From positions 6,421-70,420 of the forward strand of contig JAEOTO010000008.1 in NCBI GenBank assembly GCA_016839805.1: a stretch of DNA of 64,000 nt. The letters are read 5' to 3'. This document shows positions 40,123-61,494 of the stretch, one piece after another (the first letter of the stretch is position 1; the number at the start of each line of letters is the position of its first letter). Both the position numbers and the translations under genes were made by a program. The notes under the pieces are model-generated. The model searched no databases, had not been told where the DNA came from, and saw only the letters and a program-made list of their open reading frames with translations. This DNA comes from Candidatus Hermodarchaeota archaeon (lineage in GTDB: Archaea; Asgardarchaeota; Hermodarchaeia; Hermodarchaeales; Hermodarchaeaceae).

Positions 40123-43107
40123 CTAAAGGTTGCGAAGGAGAGTATTAACTTGAACCTGCCCTGCCCGTCGGGCTGGGAGATAAGCCCCTGTTAATAATCC
40201 CAGGGTGACTAACCCTAATACTGAAAGCAAGAGACTGAGGGGATAGATGATTGTGAAAGGGACGATGAAAGGTTGAGGGAAGAGTCTGATTATAACAAAC
40301 ATGAGAATCCAGGAGAATGCGCTACCAACTATTAAGCTAAAGAGAAATGCGAACATAATAAGGCTTACAAACTCAGCAAGGACTATTACCGTGATATCGC
40401 GACGCGTCCCTCCAAGAGCACGCATGATGGCAAATTCTGTTTTCCGTTGTGATACGATAGTGCTTACAAAAACCGTGAGTGCAACAATACTTATTGCTAG
40501 AGATGCAAGGAATCCTACCGAAAGGAGGCTAATGATTCCTTGGGAAAACAGGTAACCTTCAGTGTAGACACTGGCTAGATCAAATGTATACGGTGACCAA
40601 GTGGTATAAACGAAGTTTAGGGACTCTACAGCATTTTGAGCTGTTTCAATATCGGAAGATGGGTTAATATTAGCAAGGAAAAACTGGGTTGAATCCACAG
40701 AGGCATAAGGCCAGCGAGAAGGAATTTCTACGAGCATATAATGTTGATGACACAAAGCAAAGGAATCGTCCATTTGGAACCCGAACCCAGGATTTGGTGA
40801 CACCGAAGCATGGGGATCGGATGGATTCGCGTAACCTAACCCGGGAGCCGTTCGAATAATTCCGACAATATCGAAATTCTTTCCTTCGATTTCAAAGGTA
40901 TATTGATCGTATACTCGAAGGTTGATGGTTTGACCAACTCTTTTATTATAACGTAAGGCGAGGTGCTCAGGTAAGATAATTCCATTTGTGTTTGCATCTA
41001 ATCGAGCAAGAACCGTTTGATAACTTTCACCTACCATGCTTGATTCGTCCCAGTTTCCTACCTGTGCATACGCTGAAGGGTCTACACCAAGAAGCCGAAA
41101 TTCTGATTGTCCAACTTCTACAGGGACTTCGATAAAAGCTGTGGCGGTATTGATTGAGGGAAGTGAGGCGATTTGATTCACTTGCGTGGCTGGAACCCGA
41201 CTTGAGAAGACGCGGATGTCGCTGCCAACATAGTAGTGAATTTGTTGGTTAAGATGAGTGTGATAAGTTTGGGCTTCAACAGCTGAAAAAATCGTAATTG
41301 AGAAGGTTAGAAGCAAAATCATCAGTAGTGGGACGACCCGAGTACGGCGTATTCTCACGCCATTAGCAAAAATTTGGCTTTTTTGACCAATGACTGGGGT
41401 AAATAATTTCGAAACGCCTGCCATACCTGGTCGAATAATTCGGGCAATAGCATCGGCGAGAAGTATCCAAAATCCAACGACAAGAAGAAAGAAGAGGAGG
41501 GCGATTTCCACGGAGAAAGGTACAGACAGAACCACATAGAATAACGGCAAAGAAAGTAATATGATACCAACAGCATATGCTACTTGTAGTCGAGGACTTC
41601 TTTTCCAGCGAGAATTATTTTCACGGAGTTCTGAATACAGTTCCGATTTTAGAAAGGATCGTGTATTTATCATCGTGTAGATTGCTGCGGGTAAAATACA
41701 TACAAATCCTGCAATAGCCCACGTCACCAGGTTGATTGAGGTTAATTTAAGGTGATGCAGAAAGAGAATTAAATCAAAAAGTAGGAACGCGGAGGCCGAG
41801 GGAATCATACACCCGAGCAAAATGCCGAGAAAACCTCCAAATACTAGCCCAATGATAGCGAGAATGATGAATTCGTACATGAGAATGGAATAGAGCTGTT
41901 GATAACTTGCTCCACGAGATCGTAAAATTGCCAATTCTACACGGCGATTCGAAAGAAAAAGTGACGTGGTAAAAGTTGTTAAAAGGATGGATAAGATAAC
42001 CATGGGTAAAAGTATGATAATCATCGTTTGCCTTTCATAGAATGATGCTATGTAGTCTTGTAAAAAGAAGAGTTGATCACGACCACCAATGATAACGTTG
42101 TGATGCAATTGTATGTCTGTAAATAAACGTTCTAAAATTGCAATTATTTCTTCCATTGGCACAAAATATAGAGGAGCCGCATTAACTTCTACCAGTAATC
42201 GAGGAAACATAACTTGTAGCGATATTTGATCATAGATGTCAGCGCCAAGTGCATTATTGGAGATGATAATACTATCAAACCAGCCGAAGACCGGTTCGTC
42301 CCCACGATAACTGCCCCAGTTGTTACGGATTTCTAATGGAAAAGCTTCAAAAATAGGCTCCAAACCAACTATAGCTTCATAGATACCCGCAACTCGCAAT
42401 CCGTTGATATCATAGCCATTGATAGAACCAATATTGTAGACCCCACGATAATTACGTGCAATCGACACATCAATAACGCTTCCCACCGAAACCTGTAATC
42501 CCATTACTCGATCCAAGTCATCAACCACCCGTTGACTCAGAAGAACAGACCCCGGGGACACCCGAAATTGCCCTTCAATTATTCGAAACGATCGCTCAGC
42601 ACGTTCAAGAAAATCATTATCAGTGAAGATGACTTGGCAATCCTTAATACCTCTCAAATAGGGGTAAGGGAGATAAATATCAGTGGGATCCCGCTGATTG
42701 GCTTCAATCAAGGCAAATGAACTATAAACAATATTAGACGCCTGGGTCGTTACCTGAGTATCCACGAAATCTTTAACCGGAAAAATTGTTCGCGGATTAT
42801 CGTTAGGCGGATTCGCACGTTGTATGCAATAATAATGAAAGGGCATACTGGCAAAATAATCGTCGATGGCAACACGTGCCCCAGTTTCAGTCCACACAAA
42901 GACAGAGCTAACGAGAGCAACACCAATCATGATACCAATTAACAAACTAATAGAACGACGTTTATGACGACGAATTCCATGGGAAACATATCTAGCTACA
43001 TAAAGGCGACTCCCCAAACCACTTTGTTGTGGTACTCTTCGGTGAATGTCTTCACTTGACTCCTCGCTATTGAGCAATTGACCAGCCGTTCTGGATTCAT
43101 TTACCAA
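40123..43107 (-). CDS. ABC transporter permease with two FtsX (MacB-like) modules and large extracytoplasmic domains
   Basis: 994 aa. N-terminal TM, large loop, 3 TM, second large loop, 3 TM. The FtsX-type C-terminus GAYLPARRAGQVQVNTLLRNL is present. It is a paralogue of the gene at 46701..49610. Confidence 0.8.
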   Translation of the reverse strand: MVNESRTAGQLLNSEESSEDIHRRVPQQSGLGSRLYVARYVSHGIRRHKRRSISLLIGIMIGVALVSSVFVWTETGARVAIDDYFASMPFHYYCIQRANPPNDNPRTIFPVKDFVDTQVTTQASNIVYSSFALIEANQRDPTDIYLPYPYLRGIKDCQVIFTDNDFLERAERSFRIIEGQFRVSPGSVLLSQRVVDDLDRVMGLQVSVGSVIDVSIARNYRGVYNIGSINGYDINGLRVAGIYEAIVGLEPIFEAFPLEIRNNWGSYRGDEPVFGWFDSIIISNNALGADIYDQISLQVMFPRLLVEVNAAPLYFVPMEEIIAILERLFTDIQLHHNVIIGGRDQLFFLQDYIASFYERQTMIIILLPMVILSILLTTFTTSLFLSNRRVELAILRSRGASYQQLYSILMYEFIILAIIGLVFGGFLGILLGCMIPSASAFLLFDLILFLHHLKLTSINLVTWAIAGFVCILPAAIYTMINTRSFLKSELYSELRENNSRWKRSPRLQVAYAVGIILLSLPLFYVVLSVPFSVEIALLFFLLVVGFWILLADAIARIIRPGMAGVSKLFTPVIGQKSQIFANGVRIRRTRVVPLLMILLLTFSITIFSAVEAQTYHTHLNQQIHYYVGSDIRVFSSRVPATQVNQIASLPSINTATAFIEVPVEVGQSEFRLLGVDPSAYAQVGNWDESSMVGESYQTVLARLDANTNGIILPEHLALRYNKRVGQTINLRVYDQYTFEIEGKNFDIVGIIRTAPGLGYANPSDPHASVSPNPGFGFQMDDSFALCHQHYMLVEIPSRWPYASVDSTQFFLANINPSSDIETAQNAVESLNFVYTTWSPYTFDLASVYTEGYLFSQGIISLLSVGFLASLAISIVALTVFVSTIVSQRKTEFAIMRALGGTRRDITVIVLAEFVSLIMFAFLFSLIVGSAFSWILMFVIIRLFPQPFIVPFTIIYPLSLLLSVLGLVTLGLLTGAYLPARRAGQVQVNTLLRNL

Positions 43108-46700: not shown

Positions 46701-49610
46701 TTAGAGATTGCGGAGAACTTGTCCAACATTAGTTCGCCCTGCCCGTCGTGCAGGGATATAGGTTCCGATACTCATTCCTATAAGTACTACTCCAAGCACA
46801 AGAAGTAACAACAGTAAGGGAATGCCCAGTTGGAAGGGAATTATGTATGGGAAAGGAAAGAGGTTAAGCAGGATTGCCATTAAGATCCATGAGAAGAAGA
46901 AGCCGAGTATTAACGCAACGAAGAAGGATGTCAGGATTAAACCAATAAATTCGCCCACAACAATTGCAGTTATTTGTCGTTGGGTGCTACCCACTGCACG
47001 CATAATAGCATATTCAGTTTGTCGTTCAGTGACGATTATTCCTACAAAAAGGATGAGAGCAATGATACTAATAATTACACATGCTAAGAAGCCAATTGAA
47101 AGAATACTAATTATACCTCGGTTGAAAAGATGTCCTTCAGGATAGGCGTCTTCTAAAGAAAAGGTCATAGGAGAGTATACCGCGGATGGAAAATCAAGAT
47201 TGCTTATCTGGAGTTGAACATCTTCAACATTTGCACTTTCAGTAATTCTTGCTAGCATAAGCTTGGTATTATTCATATTCCGGTTTACCATGAAGTTGTA
47301 ATTTATTAACGCATAAGCTTGCGATGCTTGAAAACCAAACCCATTTGTTGAATCTGGTGGTCGATTGGGATCATCAGGATCAAAGTAGCCTAATCCAGGA
47401 GCACTGTGACCTAAGCCTACAATGCGGAATAAAGCCTGCCCTGACACGCCACCTCCTTGCTCGTGAACGGTAATATCAAGGCTGTTTCCAACTCCTCGCC
47501 CCAATCGTTCAGCAGTTGTATGAGGAAATATGATTCCGTTTGATGTGTTATGAAGGTGTTGTAGAACTGTGTACGGATCTTCCCCTATCGTACTCGTAAG
47601 ATCCCAATTTCCATTATTGGCATAGGATTCTGCATCTATTCCATAGATTGTAAAGGAGACAGGTCCAATGGTAGCTGTTGTGGAAAGTATTGGTGTAACA
47701 GAAGCAACTCCAGGAATGGATAACACCTCACTTATTCGATTGTGAGGAATCGGTCCACTTTCAATCCGTATATCTGCACCAACATAGTAACCAACTTGCG
47801 TTACGACGTTATCTTGAACAGTTTGAGCTTCAACCACTGCAAAGACAGTAACTGAAAATGTTAAGGTTAAAATAAGGAGAAGGGGAACGATGCGTTGGCG
47901 ACGAGAACGCATACTTTTTTCAAAGAGAAAGGTTTTTTCTCCAAAGAGAGGGCGAAAACCACGTGTTATTCCCGCCACGATTTGCCGTACAATCCGAGAG
48001 CCGATATCACTGAGTAGTGCCCAAACTGCAATGGCGTAGGCAAATTGCATAATGCCAATCAAAGGGGTTCCTGGGATAAGTATAACCGTGACAATTAGAA
48101 ACCCGAGTAAGGCTACACCACCTATGAAGTAAATGATTGTGACGCCTAGATCAGCTTCAGCAGGTGGGGCTGTACCAACCATGGCTTGATAAATTTCAGT
48201 TCGTAAAAAGGATTGTACGTAGATCATTGTAAAAACTAAGGGGGGGAGAAGACAAGTTAGAAATGCAATAATCCAAGTGAGGGGTTCGAGTCTGACGTTG
48301 ATAAAGAATTGAATAAAAATTTCTGGGTCAAATTGTAAGAAGCCCACGGATGCGGGGATCAAGGATCCAATGAAAAGACTAACGAAGACACCCAAACAAA
48401 GTGCGATTATTCCGATAATTACAAATTCCATGATGAAAGCCGCATATAGTTGGCGAAAACTCGCTCCGCGGGAGCGAAGAATTGCTACCTCTGGTCGACG
48501 CCCACTTAGAAAAATGTTGGTAGCAAAAATTGTCAGGAAAATTGAAAGAAGGATGACAGGAAGCACGATAAGAGCCATGGTTTGACGAGATTGATAGGCT
48601 CCAATATACTGCTCAAGAAGAAAAACCTGATCTTCTCCTTCCACTGCTAATCTCCGTGGATACTGATATTCCAGCTCGAGTTGTATCTCGCGAATGACAG
48701 ATGGCACACTTTCTAATCCTGCTACAGAAAGTTCAGTGGGATTTAATTGAACGAGAAGTTTTGGAAAAAGGGAATTTTCTGTAAGATTATCTCGTTGAGT
48801 CGAGTTCAATTGATTATACTGCATGATAATTCCATCATTCCAGCCAAAAATTCGTTCTAAACCAGATACTGGATAGTTCGATCGAGCAGTGCCTCTAAAG
48901 GATCTATAAAGGACTACGTCACTACTTGTGATATTGTAAGTGCCTACTACAAGGAGATTGGTTATGTTTAGGGGTTGCAAATCACCGATCGTTATGGGAT
49001 CATCATACATGGTGGCAATTGTGACGTTGATGACACTACCAATGCCAATAGTTTGGTTCAGAAGGGTTTCAGCATCCTCAACAACTCTTGTGCTCACTAA
49101 ACATTCACCAGGTGATAGTTCAAAAACGCCAGTAAATTGAAACTGGTGTGCAACTCGGTGAAGAAAAGTATTGTTTACAAAGAAGGTCTGGAAATCCTTT
49201 ATGCCCTTGATATAAGGATGTGGCAGATAGGGAGTACTTGAGTTCCAATTGGTGGCATTTAGTAATCCAACTGAATGGTAAATGACATCAGAACCTTGAT
49301 ACGCTGATTGTTCTGTGAACCAATTTTGCACATTAAAAATTAGCTGACTGTCAACTGAGGGTTCGTCTAATTGTTGAATGCCGAGTTGGTAGAGATTTGC
49401 TTCAAAATAATCGATGGTTGCCACTTGTGCACCGGTATCTGTCCATACAAAAATTGATGCGACTAAAGAGACGCCAATTATTATTCCGATGAGGAGACTG
49501 AAGAATCGTGTTCTATGTTTTCGCATGCTATTTCCGACATAGCTAGCAATATACCACCGACTTCCTGAGGTATATGGCGATATTTTAGGTGGAGTAGACT
49601 CTGAGCTCAC
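46701..49610 (-). CDS. ABC transporter permease with two FtsX (MacB-like) modules
   Basis: 969 aa with the same architecture and conserved N- and C-termini as 40123..43107 (GTYIPARRAGRTNVGQVLRNL). Confidence 0.8.
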   Translation of the reverse strand: MSSESTPPKISPYTSGSRWYIASYVGNSMRKHRTRFFSLLIGIIIGVSLVASIFVWTDTGAQVATIDYFEANLYQLGIQQLDEPSVDSQLIFNVQNWFTEQSAYQGSDVIYHSVGLLNATNWNSSTPYLPHPYIKGIKDFQTFFVNNTFLHRVAHQFQFTGVFELSPGECLVSTRVVEDAETLLNQTIGIGSVINVTIATMYDDPITIGDLQPLNITNLLVVGTYNITSSDVVLYRSFRGTARSNYPVSGLERIFGWNDGIIMQYNQLNSTQRDNLTENSLFPKLLVQLNPTELSVAGLESVPSVIREIQLELEYQYPRRLAVEGEDQVFLLEQYIGAYQSRQTMALIVLPVILLSIFLTIFATNIFLSGRRPEVAILRSRGASFRQLYAAFIMEFVIIGIIALCLGVFVSLFIGSLIPASVGFLQFDPEIFIQFFINVRLEPLTWIIAFLTCLLPPLVFTMIYVQSFLRTEIYQAMVGTAPPAEADLGVTIIYFIGGVALLGFLIVTVILIPGTPLIGIMQFAYAIAVWALLSDIGSRIVRQIVAGITRGFRPLFGEKTFLFEKSMRSRRQRIVPLLLILTLTFSVTVFAVVEAQTVQDNVVTQVGYYVGADIRIESGPIPHNRISEVLSIPGVASVTPILSTTATIGPVSFTIYGIDAESYANNGNWDLTSTIGEDPYTVLQHLHNTSNGIIFPHTTAERLGRGVGNSLDITVHEQGGGVSGQALFRIVGLGHSAPGLGYFDPDDPNRPPDSTNGFGFQASQAYALINYNFMVNRNMNNTKLMLARITESANVEDVQLQISNLDFPSAVYSPMTFSLEDAYPEGHLFNRGIISILSIGFLACVIISIIALILFVGIIVTERQTEYAIMRAVGSTQRQITAIVVGEFIGLILTSFFVALILGFFFSWILMAILLNLFPFPYIIPFQLGIPLLLLLLVLGVVLIGMSIGTYIPARRAGRTNVGQVLRNL

Positions 49611-50338
49611 GATGGCTCCTCCTCGGAATCGCTGTCCCGTCCGTACATGGAGGTATCAGTGTGGAGTTTTCCGTAGCGGAGTACAAGTATACGATCGGCT
49701 GAACTGGCCACCTCAGGGTCATGCGTGGCAACTACTACGGCTTTATTGTAATTATGTGCTAATTCTTGGAATAACCGGATGATTTCGATTCCAGTGGTTG
49801 TATCTAGATTACCTGTAGGTTCATCCGCAAGAAGAAGGATTGGTTCATTTGCTATGGCTCGAGCGAGGGCAATGCGTTGCATTTGTCCCCCAGACATTTC
49901 CATCGGGTATTGCTCTGCAAAGTCTCGCATTCCTACTAAATCCAGTAGATCTAAGGCACGTTGAACACGTTCTTCCCTTGATTTATCAGCAAATATCATA
50001 GGAACTTCTACATTTTCACGGGCATTCATGATGTCCAATAGGTAGAAGCCCTGAAAGACGATGCCAACTTTATCACGACGAAGCCGAGAAAGCTCTTTAT
50101 CGTTTAAACCATTCAGAGATTGCCCGTCGATGCTAATTTCTCCATCTGTTGGTGAGTCTAAAAGAGCCATAAGGTTGATCAGAGTGGTTTTACCACTTCC
50201 ACTAGCGCCCACAATAGCGACGAATTCTCCTGCTTTAACGGTGAAATCAAGACCCTTTAACACTTCAACTTTGAGGTCTCCATCTTCATATGTTTTGAAG
50301 ACACTGTTACATTTAACGACAATGTTATTGGATGCCAA
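49607..50338 (-). CDS. ABC transporter ATP-binding protein (MacB/LolD-like)
   Basis: Walker A GASGSGKTT, signature MSGGQMQRIALA, Walker B LLADEPTGNLD. The stop overlaps the permease start by 4 nt. Confidence 0.85.
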   Translation of the reverse strand: MASNNIVVKCNSVFKTYEDGDLKVEVLKGLDFTVKAGEFVAIVGASGSGKTTLINLMALLDSPTDGEISIDGQSLNGLNDKELSRLRRDKVGIVFQGFYLLDIMNARENVEVPMIFADKSREERVQRALDLLDLVGMRDFAEQYPMEMSGGQMQRIALARAIANEPILLLADEPTGNLDTTTGIEIIRLFQELAHNYNKAVVVATHDPEVASSADRILVLRYGKLHTDTSMYGRDSDSEEEPS

Positions 50339-54534: not shown

Positions 54535-55590
54535 ATGCCCTTATCGCTTGGTCAAATTGTTTCAGAGGTTAAAGATTATTGGGGATTACGACGAAAACAG
54601 CCCATTGGGAAATTAGTAAAAATTCTACGGAAAGAGGGGTTCAAATGTCCTCACGTTTTATCCTCAATTGGTGAAGATTCCGCTGCGATAGACCTCGGTG
54701 GAGACCGCTTAATTCTGCTTTCCACCGATGCTGTGATACCAGAACTTGCGAAATCTCATCCGTATATTGCTGGCTACGCAGCGATCTTAGTAAATGTCAA
54801 TGACATCTATGCCGCAGGGGGTCGTCCAATCGTCGCCATGGTTAACATTGCCTTTACAAAAATTAATGATGGCGTTGAAATCATGGAGGGTATATGTGAA
54901 GCAGGTCGAAAATTTCATGTTGAAGTAGTCCGCGGGCACACCACCCCTAACGCTCCGGTTAATGGTGTAAGTGCGTCTATATGCGGAACCGTTCCTCGTG
55001 ATGCTTACATTAGTGCAGGTGGGGCTAAGCTCGCAGATCGCCTAATCTTAGCATTAGATTTGGAGGGACGAGTCTCACCTAATTATGAGTATGGTTGGGA
55101 TACAACAGCTCTCAAAACCTCTGATGCCATTCTTCAACGCTATGAATCGATGCGTCTCCTTGCCGAAAAACGACTTCTTCATGCATCCAAGGATTTGAGT
55201 AATGGTGGGATTATTGGCACCACTCTTCTTATGTTAGAATATGCACAAAAGGGAGCAATAATCGATTTAGCATCAATTGCTACTCCAGTTGATTTGGATT
55301 TGGCGACATGGTTGAAGATGTATATTTCTACGGGGTTTATCGTTACAACACCAAAAGGTAACGTCGAAGAAGTTGTGGGAATCTTCGAGGATCATAGTCT
55401 TAGCGCAACGGATATTGGAGAGATCAATGAGAGTAAAAAAATGGTCGTTGAACTGGGTGAAGAATCCACTACAATTTTTGATTTCGAAAAAGAGTCAATC
55501 GTTGCACCTCCACCACCTCCTCAACTGGACCGTCTGACGACACAAAAACTAAAGCGACAAAAAAGAAAAAGTGACCCTAACAATAAATAA
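54535..55590 (+). CDS. AIR-synthase-related (PurM/ThiL/HypE superfamily) protein with C-terminal Pro-rich/basic tail
   Basis: SSIGEDSAAIDLGGDRLILLSTDAV..., then AILVNVNDIYAAGGRPI..., then RGHTT match the PurM-like N-domain motifs. The tail reads PPPPPQLDRLTTQKLKRQKRKSDPNNK. Confidence 0.65.
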   Translation: MPLSLGQIVSEVKDYWGLRRKQPIGKLVKILRKEGFKCPHVLSSIGEDSAAIDLGGDRLILLSTDAVIPELAKSHPYIAGYAAILVNVNDIYAAGGRPIVAMVNIAFTKINDGVEIMEGICEAGRKFHVEVVRGHTTPNAPVNGVSASICGTVPRDAYISAGGAKLADRLILALDLEGRVSPNYEYGWDTTALKTSDAILQRYESMRLLAEKRLLHASKDLSNGGIIGTTLLMLEYAQKGAIIDLASIATPVDLDLATWLKMYISTGFIVTTPKGNVEEVVGIFEDHSLSATDIGEINESKKMVVELGEESTTIFDFEKESIVAPPPPPQLDRLTTQKLKRQKRKSDPNNK

Positions 55591-55624
55591 TAGAAACAGT
55601 AATCACTGTACATATGGACAGCGA

Positions 55625-56236
55625 ATGGTGAGAACAATGGCTGCTAAAGAAAATGAGCGAGATTACCCAGCTGAAGCATCTAAAGCTGTAAAGAAAGTTC
55701 AGACAATCGTTAAACAGATGAACAAAGAACTTGTAGAACAGCGGAGCCTTAGGGCTACGGCTGAAGCTCGTGTTGAAGAACTTATGAAAGAAATTCAACT
55801 TCAGGCTTCAAAAGGTGAACGCTTAGAACGGACTATTAGTGAATTAAGAGAAACCGCGAACCAAAGCTCTGAATTGATAACGAAAAATCGTGCTCTTCAG
55901 GCAGAAGTTGATGCTATTCAAACCCAGCTAGAAAAAATGTCAAAAACGTATAAAGAACTAGTTTCTGAAACAGAAGCTTCAATTCCCGTTCAAGAGCTTC
56001 TTGCCTTATACATTGCTCTACTTGAAGACGTCTTCTACGCCCAGCCCCACGCCAAGACTCTGTTCCTTCTACATGGAAGAAAGAAGGAGATGAGCCGTGA
56101 TGAAATAACAAAGACAGCAGGCCATGAAGCAACAGCTATTAGAAAGGCACTTGGTGATCTCTCGCGGGCAGAACTAATCGATTATGATGTGGAAACAGGA
56201 AGGGCTAGCCTAAAGAAACGCTTGTATCCAACTTAA
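55625..56236 (+). CDS. coiled-coil protein with C-terminal winged helix-turn-helix
   Basis: Residues about 30-130 have heptad-like charged repeats (EELMKEIQLQASKGERLERTISELRETANQ...). The C-terminus EMSRDEITKTAGHEATAIRKALGDLSRAELIDYDVETG has a wHTH pattern. The listed ORF starts at 55571, and the start was chosen at the MVRTMAAKE Met. Confidence 0.5.
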   Translation: MVRTMAAKENERDYPAEASKAVKKVQTIVKQMNKELVEQRSLRATAEARVEELMKEIQLQASKGERLERTISELRETANQSSELITKNRALQAEVDAIQTQLEKMSKTYKELVSETEASIPVQELLALYIALLEDVFYAQPHAKTLFLLHGRKKEMSRDEITKTAGHEATAIRKALGDLSRAELIDYDVETGRASLKKRLYPT

Positions 56237-57243
56237 ACCTTCATATCCGCGAGAAGCTGATTGAAACGCGGTAAACTGTGTAGACTAGCCGCAAGGGAGC
56301 AGATATACCGACTGAGCTCTAGATTTATTATGCGCTCCACATCAGAAAGGGTTTTACTTTCAGTAGCACGATCTACGAGTTCTCTAGCACTGCGATAAAT
56401 GACCCCCACGACACGCTTCTCTATATCAGGAGGCCCCCAATCAAAGCCGCCAAGGTTTCGTTTTGCCTCGTTGAGGCTGGGTTTCAATGAATTGTTTTTC
56501 AATGCATTAGCTAACTGTTCGTAGAATTCGGTTGCAACACTAACGATTTTGTTGCGTTCACGACTAGTCAAATCTGTTCCTATAGAACCTTTCCTGGCCA
56601 ACTCTTGAAGGAGCCCCGCACAGGGTGCTTCAGCAAGAAATCGTCGGATAAGATCATAGAATAGCTGGCTTGCAATCCGAGAAACCTCTGTAATTACCTC
56701 ACGGGGTTCACTATATCGGAAAAGCTCACGACAACTTTCAAACCAAAAATTTGGTAAGAGAATATGACTCCGGCTTGAATATTTATCTATTAATTGCTGA
56801 AGTGGGGGAAGGAGTTTTTCAGGATCATGAATTGAAAGCCGGCGCTGGAATGGTTTTCCGGTAAGACCAGCAAGATCCTGGGTTGCTTCCATAACTAATT
56901 GTTGAGCCGTAGCAATAGGTTCTTTTACTTTCTCTTTTGAAACTTTAACTTCTCGGGATTCAGCTAACGAATCTAAAGCTTGCTCAATTCGACCGAGGTG
57001 AGTTAAAATGACATTAATGGTGTCATCAACGAAGGAGGAGCCCGATATTGCAGTATTGTTCTTTGATTCAGCAAGAGTTTGCTTTACTGAATCGCGAACA
57101 GCTCGAACGCCATTAGAAAGTTGATTAATCTGTTGAGGGCTTAGGTCCCCTTCCGCTTCAATTGTGATCAGCGCATGAATTAATGTGGAATTCACTGTTG
57201 TGAGGATTAGGATACGTTCCAGCAATTCTTCTGCTGTTATCAT
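56233..57243 (-). CDS. alpha-helical hypothetical protein, third gene of the tubulin-like operon
   Basis: 336 aa. A strong SD-like element GGGGAGG lies 10 nt upstream of the ATG at 57243. It is 26 nt downstream of the GTPase gene. No family recognised. Confidence 0.55.
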   Translation of the reverse strand: MITAEELLERILILTTVNSTLIHALITIEAEGDLSPQQINQLSNGVRAVRDSVKQTLAESKNNTAISGSSFVDDTINVILTHLGRIEQALDSLAESREVKVSKEKVKEPIATAQQLVMEATQDLAGLTGKPFQRRLSIHDPEKLLPPLQQLIDKYSSRSHILLPNFWFESCRELFRYSEPREVITEVSRIASQLFYDLIRRFLAEAPCAGLLQELARKGSIGTDLTSRERNKIVSVATEFYEQLANALKNNSLKPSLNEAKRNLGGFDWGPPDIEKRVVGVIYRSARELVDRATESKTLSDVERIINLELSRYICSLAASLHSLPRFNQLLADMKV

Positions 57244-57269: not shown

Positions 57270-58625
57270 CTATTTCAGTTCAAGATTGAAAAGTTCGGCA
57301 ACATCTCGTATGGCTGCACGGAGAACTTCTTCGGTGACGCCCTTGGATTTCTTAAACCATCCTCTACGGAGTGGCGATGGGCCAGCATGTAGGTCAACAA
57401 GTTCTGTTGCAGAGTTGACAAGATCTGCAATTTCAGGGATTTGTGGAAGTCCTAAGAGAAGAAGAAGGTCTGTTGGATGAACTTCCTCCTCATAGGAGAT
57501 AAAACAGGGTGTAACTGCGGCTCCCTTGGCTGTGTAGGGACGGAGTGCGCTTTTGATATGAGGATCATATTCAGCTCGTGCATAATCACGTGTACCTGAG
57601 AAATTATAGTAGGCTGATGAAGCTCCAGGTTCTGAGCCTATTTCAGCAAAACTACAGTGTTCAACTGCGTATTTGACCATGGTCTTCAGTTGGGTGGGGA
57701 TATTACCTGCAGTAGGGATTAAACTAACATCTGTATAAAGACAGGGGACTACGATGGGATCTAGTTTTCGCGCATAATCAGCTATGTCAGTTGTTGGAAA
57801 GACTTCTTTTCCAGGTTCTACAACACCGGGGCTTAGCATATGCTCCACGAAGCGAAGTGCCAGTGGGTTAACCAGTTCTACAAAGGCTGATTCTTGAGCT
57901 TTCGAGATTTCATCAGCACCATCTACTGTGGAGGGAACCATTCCTTCAACATCAGTGACTTTTGCGACATCAATTTGTAACTGGCGTTGTAAGAAGTCCG
58001 CCACTTCTCCTTCGCGCCATGCTAGGATCCGTCGTAACATTGCGCGGTTACTTAGGAGACATACGAGATCAGCTCCTCGATCCTCAAGTTGACCGCGGAG
58101 AAGTTTGGAAAGAGACCACATAGTATTGAGAGCTTCTGAGGTTTGATCTTTGAAGGGAAGAACGGTAAACACGTAAACAAAGATTCGTCGACCTTCTTCC
58201 TCCTGGAAACGTTCTTTGAGAATTTCAATGAGAGCTGGAGCACCACCACAGCCTGTGCCACCTCCAGAAGAAGTGAAGATCACGAATCCTGAGACGCCTT
58301 CAAAACCAAGCTGAGTAAGTTGGCCCATTATTACCTCTTTGAAGTCGTGGACGTAATTATAACCGTCAGTAAAGTTACCACCACAACCAATATCTGAAGC
58401 ACCGTAAAGTAACGTGTTTTCTTTGGGGATTCCGTACTTGTGACGTAATTTTAGAATATCTGAGCGATCAGTATTTATGCAAAGATAACCACGAATACGA
58501 GGTGGTAACATTCGTTCGCGAGCCTGTTTAAGATAGGCACCAACGAGATTACTTCCACATTCACCAATTCCGATGGCAAATACTTCTGCTATCCGGGGAG
58601 CATCATCTGTTGCTTCCATAGTCAA
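57270..58625 (-). CDS. divergent FtsZ/tubulin-superfamily GTPase
   Basis: T1 is AIGIGECGSNLVG (tubulin-like GxCGxN). An NTD segment reads CINTDRSDIL. T3 is GASDIGCGGNFTDGY. T4 is FTSSGGGTGCGGAPALIEILKE. T5/H5 is TVLPFKDQ...ADLVCLLSNRAML (FtsZ PNDKLL equivalent). T7 is GMVPSTVDGADE, with both Asp of NxDxxD retained. There is a divergent C-terminal domain of about 200 aa. The start is either TTG at 58625 or ATG two codons downstream. Confidence 0.8.
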   Translation of the reverse strand: MTMEATDDAPRIAEVFAIGIGECGSNLVGAYLKQARERMLPPRIRGYLCINTDRSDILKLRHKYGIPKENTLLYGASDIGCGGNFTDGYNYVHDFKEVIMGQLTQLGFEGVSGFVIFTSSGGGTGCGGAPALIEILKERFQEEEGRRIFVYVFTVLPFKDQTSEALNTMWSLSKLLRGQLEDRGADLVCLLSNRAMLRRILAWREGEVADFLQRQLQIDVAKVTDVEGMVPSTVDGADEISKAQESAFVELVNPLALRFVEHMLSPGVVEPGKEVFPTTDIADYARKLDPIVVPCLYTDVSLIPTAGNIPTQLKTMVKYAVEHCSFAEIGSEPGASSAYYNFSGTRDYARAEYDPHIKSALRPYTAKGAAVTPCFISYEEEVHPTDLLLLLGLPQIPEIADLVNSATELVDLHAGPSPLRRGWFKKSKGVTEEVLRAAIRDVAELFNLELK

Positions 58626-58631
58626 TCAACT

Positions 58632-61331
58632 CTATTTCTTCTTGGCTTTCTTACTCTTTTCAGACATTACGGCTGCTAATTCACGAGCAGCCCAAACTAG
58701 GTAGCTTGCTGTATCTTCTCTAGTATATGTTTCTCGAATTCGTTTTTCGATTTCGTTGAGCTGTCGGTTTCGTTCAGCTTTCGGCGCTGCGGGGTTATAG
58801 TCAGCAAGGAATACCCGAAGCGCCTTGTGCCATTCATCAAGTTCCTTAATTTTGTCCAACCATTGTGATTCTAAATCACGGATAGTTGTGAAGATATTAA
58901 TCGCCTCTGGCAAGGAATTCGCGGTTTCTAACTTTTCACGTAGGTTTGAAAGTGTATCCATTGGAAAAATAATTTTACTGAATTCGCGAGGTCTGGCATC
59001 GTAAACGCGTTTAATCGTCGAATAGTATTCAGTGGTATTTTCAAGAAGCCCTTCGAAGGCTTTAGCAGTTTTTTGCTCCATATTACGGAGAATGTCTATT
59101 ACGCTTTTTTGAGCCTCAACTAATGCCATACAAATTTCTAAGACTGTAGTAACCTGTTCCGTTTCTAACGCATCAGGCACCCGGGCAAGTAGTTCTTTTA
59201 ATTTAATTACTATTTCAGCCTGCCCATGTCGTTCAAGAAGATCTGTTACAGAATTTAGATTACGCCAAACTTCATTCGCTTTGGCTCGTAAATCCTTGAG
59301 TAATTTAGCTTCGGTAAGTAGTTCACGGAGTTCGTCGAACCGATCGGGAAGTTCTTCAATTGTCGCCGGCAGTTTATCTTGGAGTTTGACACATTTTTTC
59401 ACGTAAATATCTGCATTAATTCCGAGGGTTGCAGCTACACTAGTCAGTTCTGAGTATGCTTTAATTTGTTCATTGAGGGTTTGGTTGAAATAACCGACGA
59501 TACGTTTTTCGAAAAGTTCAACAACATGATGAGCTTTGCGGATAGCTTCTTCATATGTCTCACTGGCAGGCACTATGGTAGTCAGTTCCTGGATTGCCGA
59601 TTGAACTTCTGGCGGAATAGTCAAATTCATTCCAAGAAGCTTTGATACTGCTAGCCGAAGTTTAAGGTCTAGACGATACTTGAGGTTCTCGATTGCATCT
59701 TGGGCCTTATATAGAGCATCGCCCTGAGCTTCCCGAGCAACCTCCTCTATTTCTTCGAAGCTTTTGCTAGCACGGATTTGCGTTATGGCGCTTTCCAGAA
59801 ATTCTTCCATGGTTTTGAAAGATTCACGATAGGTGGGTTTAATGACCTGAATTTCAGCTAATAGCGCGTTCAGTTCGCGTTCCCAAGCTTTCCGGAAGAG
59901 ATCGATTCGATTCTCCACATGTTTGCTAAGCCGGGCAAAAGCTTCAACAAGCTCTGTAAAAGTAATATCAGAGCTGCGAACAGGAGCTGGAGCCGCGCCC
60001 ATAGTCGTTTTATCTAATATCGTAGTAGCCGTCTCAGATATTCGGGTAAGGAGTGCCTCCTGGGTTCTAATTTCTGCGAGAAGTCTACCATGTTCGTCAA
60101 TGATTCGCGCAGCAACTTCAGAGTACACTTTCACGAGAACTTTAAGATCACCTTTCTGAACCTTTTTTGAGGAATTCTTCACAAATTTATCCAGTTCCTT
60201 TGTTTGGGGAAGGACAGCTCGTTTGACGGCCCGTGTGAGATCATCAATAATTCGCATGGTTTCGCTTCGAATAGCGGTTTCCACGTTTGTCTTATACGCC
60301 TGTAAGCGTTCGTAACTTGCAATTAAAGTGGCCAGATCTGCATCCTTGGGGATTTCAGGGGGTGGAGGGGGAAGAAATGTCGCCTCATTTGAGATATTAG
60401 CACTGGCCAAGGTTCGGTTTAATCCATGTTCAAATTCAAGAATCTGACTACGAATTTCGCTTGAAGCTTTGAGCACTTGACCATCATACTGTTGGACTAA
60501 ACCAAGCAATGTGGTAAGACTAGAATCGTCTTTTAATTGTTTTTTGATGGCTTCTAATGAAGTTGAGATAGCCATGGGAACATTTAGGTTCAGGCTACGG
60601 GCTGTTTCTAAGAGAGAAAGGGTTGATTCAATGCTGCTTTCTAATTTTGCCCGTAAGGTGTCGACCACTTCACCACGTCTACTTGTCAGATATTCATGTT
60701 CTTTACGTAGTGTTTGACGCATCTCAAACAGATCGGTGATGTTATTAACTTGAATGGATTCACGTTCAGCACTGAGAGAAACATCGCTGGTATCAATTCC
60801 AACAAAACGATCATAGGTTTTTATCAGAGCGCGATTCTGTTCAAGCATATCATTAGTTTGCTTCAGTAATGCATCGCGAAGTTGTTTAGAAATTCCTTCG
60901 AGATTTGATACAAACCTGGCTAATACTGGGAGAACTACTGAAAATCCTCCTTGAGTTGAGGGAAAAGAGAGTTTATTCAGATCACGACCCAACTTGAGAT
61001 CGAAAGTCATAATTGTGGCTTTCAACTCTTCAAGTTCAGTCATGTAAGTTCGTAGGAGCCCAATATGAAGCTGTAATGCACGAGATAGATTACTCTCGAT
61101 TTGGGGAAGTCCTTCTTGTATTTGTTTATTTAAACGGCGTTTCTTTGGACTTAACGACCAGCTAGTCTTTGCATCTCTATCAAAACCTTCAAGAGTCACT
61201 AATTCGCGACCAACATCCTCAAGAGCTGTTTCCGGCTCAGATGGCAGCACGCCCATAATAGTCCTACATTTTGCGTTAATATCCTTGAGTGTTGAATAGT
61301 GTTTTCGTAACTCTGCTAATGATGCAGTCAC
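58632..61331 (-). CDS. 899-aa coiled-coil / alpha-helical protein, first gene of the tubulin-like operon
   Basis: A long ORF rich in E/K/R/L/Q heptad-like sequence, with a PPPPPE linker near residue 330 and a basic C-terminal tail KSKKAKKK. It uses a GTG start with GGGGG 8 nt upstream. Its stop lies 6 nt from the GTPase gene start. Confidence 0.7.
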   Translation of the reverse strand: MTASLAELRKHYSTLKDINAKCRTIMGVLPSEPETALEDVGRELVTLEGFDRDAKTSWSLSPKKRRLNKQIQEGLPQIESNLSRALQLHIGLLRTYMTELEELKATIMTFDLKLGRDLNKLSFPSTQGGFSVVLPVLARFVSNLEGISKQLRDALLKQTNDMLEQNRALIKTYDRFVGIDTSDVSLSAERESIQVNNITDLFEMRQTLRKEHEYLTSRRGEVVDTLRAKLESSIESTLSLLETARSLNLNVPMAISTSLEAIKKQLKDDSSLTTLLGLVQQYDGQVLKASSEIRSQILEFEHGLNRTLASANISNEATFLPPPPPEIPKDADLATLIASYERLQAYKTNVETAIRSETMRIIDDLTRAVKRAVLPQTKELDKFVKNSSKKVQKGDLKVLVKVYSEVAARIIDEHGRLLAEIRTQEALLTRISETATTILDKTTMGAAPAPVRSSDITFTELVEAFARLSKHVENRIDLFRKAWERELNALLAEIQVIKPTYRESFKTMEEFLESAITQIRASKSFEEIEEVAREAQGDALYKAQDAIENLKYRLDLKLRLAVSKLLGMNLTIPPEVQSAIQELTTIVPASETYEEAIRKAHHVVELFEKRIVGYFNQTLNEQIKAYSELTSVAATLGINADIYVKKCVKLQDKLPATIEELPDRFDELRELLTEAKLLKDLRAKANEVWRNLNSVTDLLERHGQAEIVIKLKELLARVPDALETEQVTTVLEICMALVEAQKSVIDILRNMEQKTAKAFEGLLENTTEYYSTIKRVYDARPREFSKIIFPMDTLSNLREKLETANSLPEAINIFTTIRDLESQWLDKIKELDEWHKALRVFLADYNPAAPKAERNRQLNEIEKRIRETYTREDTASYLVWAARELAAVMSEKSKKAKKK

Positions 61332-61494
61332 TTTCGAACCCCCAGGGTAAGTAGCTTACACTCACCGGTCTAGAAACATTGGAAAGTTAGTTCTTAACTC
61401 TTTTGAGCCAAACCAAATTAAGGAACAAGAGCTAAATTAAAGCCAAAGTTCATTTTTCATAACTATCTACTATACACACTGTTGACAAACAAGT

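Follow-up and report, generated by a model that had tools for sequence, protein, structure and literature searches.

A tubulin-superfamily GTPase gene of the Asg.Tub type and its conserved gene array on a Hermodarchaeota contig

The window analysed here, a 64,000-nucleotide (nt) stretch of contig JAEOTO010000008.1 from a Candidatus Hermodarchaeota archaeon (GenBank assembly GCA_016839805.1), carries on its minus strand an open reading frame (ORF) at 57270-58625 that encodes 451 amino acids (aa) if it is read from a TTG codon. Judged by sequence comparison, the gene is a Hermodarchaeia-type member of Asg.Tub, an already named Asgard clade of the tubulin/FtsZ superfamily. Three genes form an array, all on the minus strand and separated by spacers of 12 and 26 nt, and this one lies in the middle. 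Residues are numbered throughout from the TTG at 58625 as residue 1 (the 451-aa version).

58632..61331, minus strand: upstream partner gene, 899 aa, GTG start; product rich in Leu, Glu, Ala and Lys, without a transmembrane segment
58620..58631, minus strand: spacer of 12 nt separating the upstream stop codon from the ATG, with an in-frame TGA and a spurious TTG
57270..58619, minus strand: tubulin-superfamily GTPase gene of the Asg.Tub family, encoding 449 aa when read from the ATG at 58619-58617, which is conserved
56233..57243, minus strand: downstream partner gene, 336 aa; N-terminal ~130 aa modelled as low-confidence helices, conserved C-terminal helical domain 135-336 with a predicted local distance difference test score (pLDDT) of ~90

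A sequence-only reading of the window had given a noncanonical TTG start, 6 nt past the stop of the upstream gene (899 aa), or alternatively an ATG 12 nt past it. The ATG is kept in 13 of 13 Hermodarchaeia relatives (proteins 78 to 99% identical), while the TTG position is a nonstart codon (ATA, AAC, ACT, GAA, etc.) in 12 of these and a start codon in 1, and the database copy of the identical protein is 449 aa long, i.e., it starts at the ATG. We therefore place the start at 58619-58617 and regard the TTG as an ORF-finder artefact; the corrected start codon can be used for an expression construct. Several relatives have GGTGA or GGATGA 6 to 9 nt before the ATG, which, going by archaeal 16S 3' ends, we take to be Shine-Dalgarno-like, and the window gene has GAGTTGA. 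The tight spacing to the upstream gene noted in the earlier reading is a general feature, with gaps of 14, 11, 11, and -8 nt in loci L002 to L005 and thus a range of -8 to +14 nt in five lineages including that of the window; from this arrangement, expression coupled with the upstream gene is plausible.

The ORF and all motif strings quoted in the sequence-only reading are present, those of T1, T3, T4, INTD, and S6/T6 where it had placed them, and its assignment of the product to the superfamily agrees with Pfam. The protein matches the Tubulin/FtsZ GTPase domain PF00091 (E value, 7.7e-18; 65.9 bits versus a gathering score of 33) and possesses the G-box, with Cys replacing the Ser/Thr of GGGTG[ST]G. 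Because the Pfam match is above cut-off and more than 200 distinct full-length homologues exist, this is a real tubulin-superfamily gene rather than a chance motif pattern. A search of 5.8 billion proteins gave 131 matches. Among the matches listed (120), identities are 47 to 100%, most proteins are full length (~440 to 480 aa) and a few are partial, almost all are annotated as hypothetical, and wherever the source name states a taxon, that taxon is Asgard (Thor-, Hod-, Heimdall-, Hermod-, and Promethearchaeota, and Asgardarchaeia). In a filter-free profile search over 1.84 billion cluster representatives, two family clusters scored 688 and 493 bits, a sister group scored 157 bits, and the rest scored below 80 bits; this marks the family as an isolated clade. 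Scanning one genome per GTDB species revealed relatives in 131 species, and the 80 loci that were kept are titled Hermod-, Thor-, Borr-, Sif-, or Hodarchaeota or bear the taxon-free name "uncultured archaeon." The nearest genome match is 99% identical and belongs to isolate H03M_Hermod_104.

One match, P0085 (50% identity, 97% coverage; E value, 2.8e-142), is OLS26264.1 of Heimdallarchaeota LC_3. The C-terminal alignment that Santana-Molina et al. (2023; PMC9871819) give for Asg.Tub comprises four sequences, this accession among them, the founding sequences being OLS26264.1, OLS30664.1, KXH77455.1, and PWI48967.1. Since P0085 is this Asg.Tub sequence, the kind of gene is already known and named, and the full-length similarity to a founding sequence is accompanied by an Asgard-only distribution (in the taxon-giving names) and by conserved neighbor genes. 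The published group comprises 4 sequences from Heimdall and Thor metagenome-assembled genomes (MAGs), given a phylogenetic treatment only; it was described as a new Asgard group, CetZ-like, whose branch lies in an unstable position between CetZ and tubulins and which is, according to the authors, nearer to CetZ than to tubulins (PMC9871819). Its C-terminus was matched by no other family with hidden Markov models (HMMs), and its neighbors were reported as coiled-coil genes without known function (PMC9871819).

An AlphaFold2 model of the GTPase, built on 31 family members, has a mean pLDDT of 83.4 and a predicted template modelling score (pTM) of 0.85. Its secondary-structure elements run from S1-H1 to S6-H6; next come an insert of low confidence (204-236), a helix of 26 residues (239-264), and a loop that leads to a short helix (281-287), after which four strands with two helices precede three helices at the C-terminus (397-445). 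In the model this is the topology of tubulin and CetZ (S1-S6 / H7 / H8-S10 / H11-H12), in which core helix H7 links two domains and leads on to the T7 loop and H8. Because of this modelled topology, the C-terminal ~200 aa, which had been thought to align to nothing, can be read as an ordinary tubulin-fold C-terminal domain. An hhalign comparison with a CetZ-type profile likewise covers residues 13-413 (353 columns; probability, 99.85; E value, 1e-30), so that the region is alignable after all. Foldseek against PDB gave E values of ~1e-18 for OdinTubulin and CetZ2 alike. Structure scores were 35.4 for a tubulin beta chain (4ffb_B), 35.1 for BtubA, 34.6 for OdinTubulin, 33.9 and 33.6 for two CetZ entries, 33.5 for AtubB2, 32.8 for alpha-tubulin, 32.3 for gamma-tubulin, 28.3 for FtsZ, 26.4 to 27.9 for TubZ, and 19.7 to 22.0 for PhuZ, with the next unrelated fold at ~10. 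The predicted structure groups with the tubulins and CetZ and is equidistant from both.

The protein might nevertheless be a plain CetZ, that is, a euryarchaeal cell-shape protein working like Haloferax volcanii CetZ1. The best PDB sequence matches are indeed CetZ1 (4b46; E value, 2.8e-10) and CetZ (3zid; 3e-5), the hhalign result just given was obtained with a CetZ-type profile, the T7 loop lacks Asn as does the CetZ VVDxxE motif, one homologue is auto-annotated as "Tubulin-like protein CetZ," and Santana-Molina et al. place the group nearer to CetZ than to tubulins (PMC9871819). The match to CetZ1, however, extends over 127 residues, far under the level seen within CetZ, where a true CetZ (P0222) matches the same entry over its full length at 3e-113; close full-length similarity to CetZ1/CetZ2 is thus not seen. 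Published trees put Asg.Tub outside canonical CetZ, and the gene context, strictly conserved here, is different, the authors calling the contexts of CetZ and of these groups unrelated (PMC9871819). The T1 loop reads GECGSN versus GQAGG[KR], additional C-terminal helices are predicted at 418-445, and the distribution is Asgard only. We consider a plain CetZ improbable. The expectation that the protein would be neither a routine CetZ nor an FtsZ was borne out by this weak CetZ1 match and by the NCBIfam FtsZ model (TIGR00065 equivalog), which scores 25.8 bits, far below its cut-off of 295.2.

Even less probable, in our estimate, is a true tubulin relative on the stem to eukaryotic tubulin, similar to OdinTubulin or AtubA/B and perhaps able to form tubules, although some published trees do put Asg.Tub basal to tubulins (PMC9871819). 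Tubulin matches in PDB have E values of 1e-5 to 1e-6 and are confined to the N-terminal GTPase domain, none extending beyond residue ~210; identities in structure alignments are 12 to 21%; and a single gene is present rather than an A/B pair. The authors, moreover, report CetZ-type indels and reject a tubulin affiliation (PMC9871819). The C-termini of the family (window 57270-57359, residues 423-451) share the motif W-F-x-[RK]-S-K-G-x(4)-E-L-x-x-A-x-x-D-x(3)-L-F-x-x-Y, whose final Tyr is lost in the lineage of the window gene. This tail is collinear with the tubulin H11'-H12 region WY..EGM.E.EF.EA..N...L..EY, and the resemblance speaks for the stem position: a tail profile scored 5.3 bits against an OdinTubulin fragment, a level that 6 of 2000 shuffles attained. 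The comparison with alpha or beta tubulin was not significant, and we treat the tubulin-like C-terminal motif as a lead only. Our placement remains an Asg.Tub lineage that stands at about the same distance from CetZ as from true tubulins.

The GTPase motifs and core elements of the window gene are located as follows; conservation was counted over 202 distinct sequences of the family (198 ungapped sequences for T1).

58548..58571, minus strand: T1 loop GIGECGSN, residues 19-26; family signature G-x-G-E-[CA]-G-S-N
58359..58388, minus strand: T3 loop GCGGNFTDGY, residues 80-89; family norm GVGG[RK]F
58242..58265, minus strand: T4 signature GGGTGCGG, residues 121-128; essentially invariant, with C126 in 199/202
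58035..58058, minus strand: S6/T6 LLSNRAML, residues 190-197; S192 and N193 invariant (202/202)
57909..57932, minus strand: STVDGADE, residues 232-239, the T7 of the sequence-only reading; variable H6-H7 linker, not T7
57834..57911, minus strand: core helix H7, residues 239-264 (DSSP of the AlphaFold2 model); F248, N253, and P254 invariant (202/202)
57774..57800, minus strand: FPTTDIADY, residues 276-284, assigned as the true T7 loop and the start of H8, between H7 (239-264) and H8 (281-287)

In T1, G21, E22, and G24 occur in 198/198 sequences and N26 in 197/198. The loop is a mosaic in sequence, a tubulin/CetZ-like [QE]-[CA]-G core being followed by an FtsZ-like terminal Asn, and its invariant Glu stands where tubulin and CetZ have Gln. 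The earlier equation of Cys-Gly-x-Asn with the tubulin GQCGNQ is loose, tubulin having C-G-N. The canonical CetZ T1, G-x-G-Q-A-G-G-[KR] (a consensus taken from an alignment made in this analysis), is not present; the family has G-x-G-E-[CA]-G-S-N. INTD is found at residues 50-53. Cys81 and Asn84 of T3 each occur in 20 of the 202 sequences and, among aligned members, in the closest relatives of the window gene, making them lineage specific. GGGTGCG occupies residues 121-127, where T4 matches the CetZ/tubulin GGGTGSG(G), and across the family T5 reads LPF..QSSEA.N. The H5/S6 block quoted in the sequence-only reading, ADLVCLLSNRAML, lies at residues 185-197, and T6 across the family is LLSN[RKN][TA]ML; by alignment with the CetZ "DN" motif, N193 would be the expected guanine-contacting Asn. 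N253 of H7 aligns with the Asn of the CetZ H7 "IN." The nucleotide-binding set (T1, T3, T4, T5, T6, and the H7 Asn) is complete, and "intermediate" is a fair description of a pattern that combines tubulin/CetZ and FtsZ elements.

T7 is the loop joining H7 and H8. STVDGADE, proposed earlier as T7, precedes H7 and overlaps a stretch with pLDDT below 50 (222-236); the family alignment is at its most variable and gapped there, with D235 in 110/202 and D238 in 36/202 sequences, and it was rejected. The H7-H8 loop of the model comprises residues 265-280, and P277, D280, and D283 are invariant (202/202). An hhalign comparison of only the H7-T7-H8 sub-alignments of the family and CetZ gave no signal; because of this, and because the full-length register is unreliable there, T7 was assigned from topology, spacing, a bridging sequence, and conservation. 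On these grounds D280 and D283, in T-T-D280-I-A-D283, are probably the catalytic-type acidic pair at the T7 position, in an inferred register. The bridging relative P0217, from the profile search, has the canonical tubulin-type N-I-D-P-S-E-Y in the columns of FPTTDIADY. D280 and D283 are 27 and 30 residues past N253, and D215 and E218 of H. volcanii CetZ1 are 28 and 31 residues past the H7 Asn; E218 is reportedly the residue mutated in the published GTPase-dead CetZ1. The claim of an intact T7 acidic pair hence holds in that an invariant pair exists, but it had been put at the wrong site, ~45 residues upstream of the real one. Because of the invariant pair, a polymerisation-activated GTPase is a reasonable reading, and the residues to mutate would be D280 and D283 and not D235 and D238.

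Four more distant tubulin-like proteins, P0205 (locus L006:6001-7374), P0215, P0216, and P0217, share some of the unusual motifs of the family: a GIGEGG T1 (P0205 and P0217), [AL]AGGTGCG (P0205, P0216, and P0217), and [VT]N[PS] in H7 (P0205 and P0217). P0205 is at the one sister-group locus that was fetched, where the large upstream partner is missing. An Asgardarchaeia MAG (GCA_052584985, L005:7001-8323) has its tubulin-like gene broken into two ORFs of 389 and 42 aa; the smaller matches the family C-terminus, and the break is either a frameshift or pseudogene or an assembly error.

The array was counted in the scan described above with HMMs for both neighbors. A homologue of the upstream protein is directly upstream on the same strand at 69 of the 70 loci with room for it, and the downstream protein has a homologue directly downstream at 78/80. 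Departures from this layout are L004, with an Arf-family gene on the opposite strand in place of the downstream gene, and L006, which belongs to the sister family. As far as could be found, this near-universal array across Asgard groups has not been quantified in the literature. Across loci the upstream partner is a helical protein of 870 to 1170 aa, and the downstream partner is one of ~300 to 360 aa. Identity between classes is 48 to 64% for the tubulin-like protein, 19 to 29% for the upstream partner, and 26 to 33% for the downstream partner, the pattern one would expect if a constrained polymer had accessory proteins that evolve faster. Neither partner has transmembrane segments; searches of Pfam, NCBIfam, PADLOC, and PHROGs with the partners from the window, of Pfam with those from four other lineages, and a PDB profile search with the upstream partner returned nothing meaningful. 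The model of the downstream partner, made from a shallower alignment without locus-derived sequences, resembles generic helical bundles only. Runs free of Pro and Gly in the upstream partner are at most 49 residues long, and for the "coiled-coil" protein helical bundles or repeats may be a better reading than one long rod. From these searches, the partners appear to be soluble proteins matching no known family.

The upstream partner gene has GGGGGT 7 to 8 nt upstream of its GTG start at 61331. It shares with an M24 peptidase gene a divergent intergenic region of 163 bp (61332-61494), whose AT-rich TTTAATTT and CTTAATTT are candidate TATA boxes. Arf-family small GTPase genes stand beside the array at L004:8383-10605 (minus strand), L003:1-37, and L005:3532-4113; the protein in place of the downstream partner in L004 is a 740-aa Arf-domain protein. 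A general link of Arf-like GTPases to the array was considered and not counted as part of the system: jackhmmer with the L005 Arf seed gave 2/86 loci, an undercount because it missed L003 and L004.

A degenerate, nonpolymerising scaffold GTPase, or a mobile-element partition system of the TubZ/PhuZ type, would fit the replacement of Gln by Glu in T1 and of Asn by Thr in T7, as well as partner genes without an assigned function. A possible adaptor was sought in the adjacent gene at 55571-56236 (plus strand), which is convergent with the downstream partner gene, their ends overlapping by 4 nt. Its product is a coiled-coil protein of 221 aa whose C-terminal part weakly matches a winged-helix/TFIIE-alpha-like domain. 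The gene was rejected as a TubR-like adaptor, since it is adjacent only in Hermodarchaeia: a homologue adjoins the array in 12 Hermodarchaeia loci, and the only match elsewhere was in L005, ~5 kb downstream of the array. Neither the mobile-element site nor the TubR-like adaptor of a TubZ/PhuZ system was found, and the genomic setting gave no matches in the defence and phage libraries PADLOC and PHROG. The flanking genes (a TldD/PmbA pair, an AIR-synthase-related protein, an M24 family peptidase, an M20 peptidase, and ABC/FtsX transporters) are of a housekeeping kind, which argues against a mobile element, and the locus is present in 131 species genomes. All 202 sequences are invariant in their nucleotide-contact motifs and in the acidic pair of T7, a constraint not expected for a dead enzyme. 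A scaffold or partition protein is thus highly unlikely.

Taken together, the gene probably encodes a CetZ-like member of Asg.Tub that undergoes GTP-driven assembly and acts with two co-made partners, a reading that is more certain for family identity and less certain for the roles of the partners. With GTP bound, subunits would assemble head-to-tail into protofilaments, and T7 of one subunit would complete the GTPase site of the next and activate hydrolysis, by analogy with FtsZ, CetZ, and tubulin. The three proteins of the array, given the 12- and 26-nt spacers, are presumably made together, and the partners may serve the polymer as dedicated adaptors or regulators, anchoring, bundling, or nucleating it. 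In the cell, the role would be cytoskeletal (shape or membrane organisation) rather than division.

Several points weigh against this reading. The T7 assignment is based on predicted secondary structure, loop spacing, the bridging sequence, and conservation; hhalign puts the CetZ T7 in a different, low-confidence register, and MAFFT pairs the CetZ catalytic Glu with D280 and not with D283, although in either register an invariant Asp would be at the catalytic position. T1 carries Glu for the Gln of tubulin and CetZ, and T7 carries Thr for the Asn of tubulin and FtsZ. A literature search found no functional or structural work on any family member. Neither partner matches anything known, and their roles are pure inference.

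It is tempting, if still doubtful, to go further and regard the array as a self-contained, previously undescribed Asgard cytoskeletal system, with a GTPase lineage that split between CetZ and tubulin and has tubulin-like C-terminal helices, and with two fast-evolving partners serving as nucleator, bundler, or anchor. If that were true, the filament architecture and the partners would inform the origin of tubulin-type polymers and their associated proteins before eukaryotes. Among the Asgard groups sampled, the family occurs much more widely than do the few "true" Asgard tubulins that have been studied. It is a good candidate for a cytoskeletal system, as yet unstudied, among the prokaryotes most closely related to eukaryotes. 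Its high constraint (48 to 64% identity across classes) and near-constant pairing with the same two proteins make it worth study, and the array, which offers two candidate interaction partners, makes it experimentally attractive.

Further away in the window, the AIR-synthase-related protein (54535-55590, plus strand; PF00586/PF02769) has an unusual C-terminus in which a PPPPPQ stretch precedes a basic tail (KLKRQKRKSDPNNK). Two paralogous FtsX/MacB-type permeases of ~970 to 990 aa are encoded at 40123-43107 and 46701-49610 (both minus strand), and an ABC ATPase gene (49607-50338) adjoins the second.

Compared with known systems, the family is like CetZ (CetZ1/CetZ2, 4b46/4b45; M. thermophila, 3zid) in its two-domain tubulin fold with helix H11, its T4 GGGTG[SC]GG, and its T7 of the form x-x-D-x-x-[DE] without Asn. 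It is unlike CetZ in its identity of only 18 to 23%, its T1 GECGSN in place of GQAGG[KR], a variable insert of ~35 residues before H7, two further predicted C-terminal helices, its occurrence in Asgard archaea rather than Euryarchaeota, and its tie to an operon with two partner genes. With tubulins (OdinTubulin, 7evg; AtubA/B, 9f6t; BtubA, 2bto; alpha/beta/gamma) it shares the T1 Cys, a T5 E-x-x-N, and, as predicted, helices after H11, whereas, at the 12 to 21% identity given above, it lacks GQ[AC]GNQ, GxxNxDxxE, and a heterodimer gene pair. The superfamily fold, the Asn ending T1, the NTD motif after S2, and a T7 pair of the D-x-x-D type are features in common with FtsZ, which is shorter and lacks the C-terminal helices. 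A division-gene context was not observed at the six loci inspected for flanking genes. Asg.Tub as published has the same C-terminal motifs (PTTDLADY and WF.RSKG) as the family of the window gene. The present analysis brings this group to 200+ sequences and adds further named Asgard groups (Hermod-, Borr-, Sif-, and Hodarchaeota and others), a fold model with a normal tubulin-type C-terminal domain, a placement of the T7 pair, and a quantified three-gene array.

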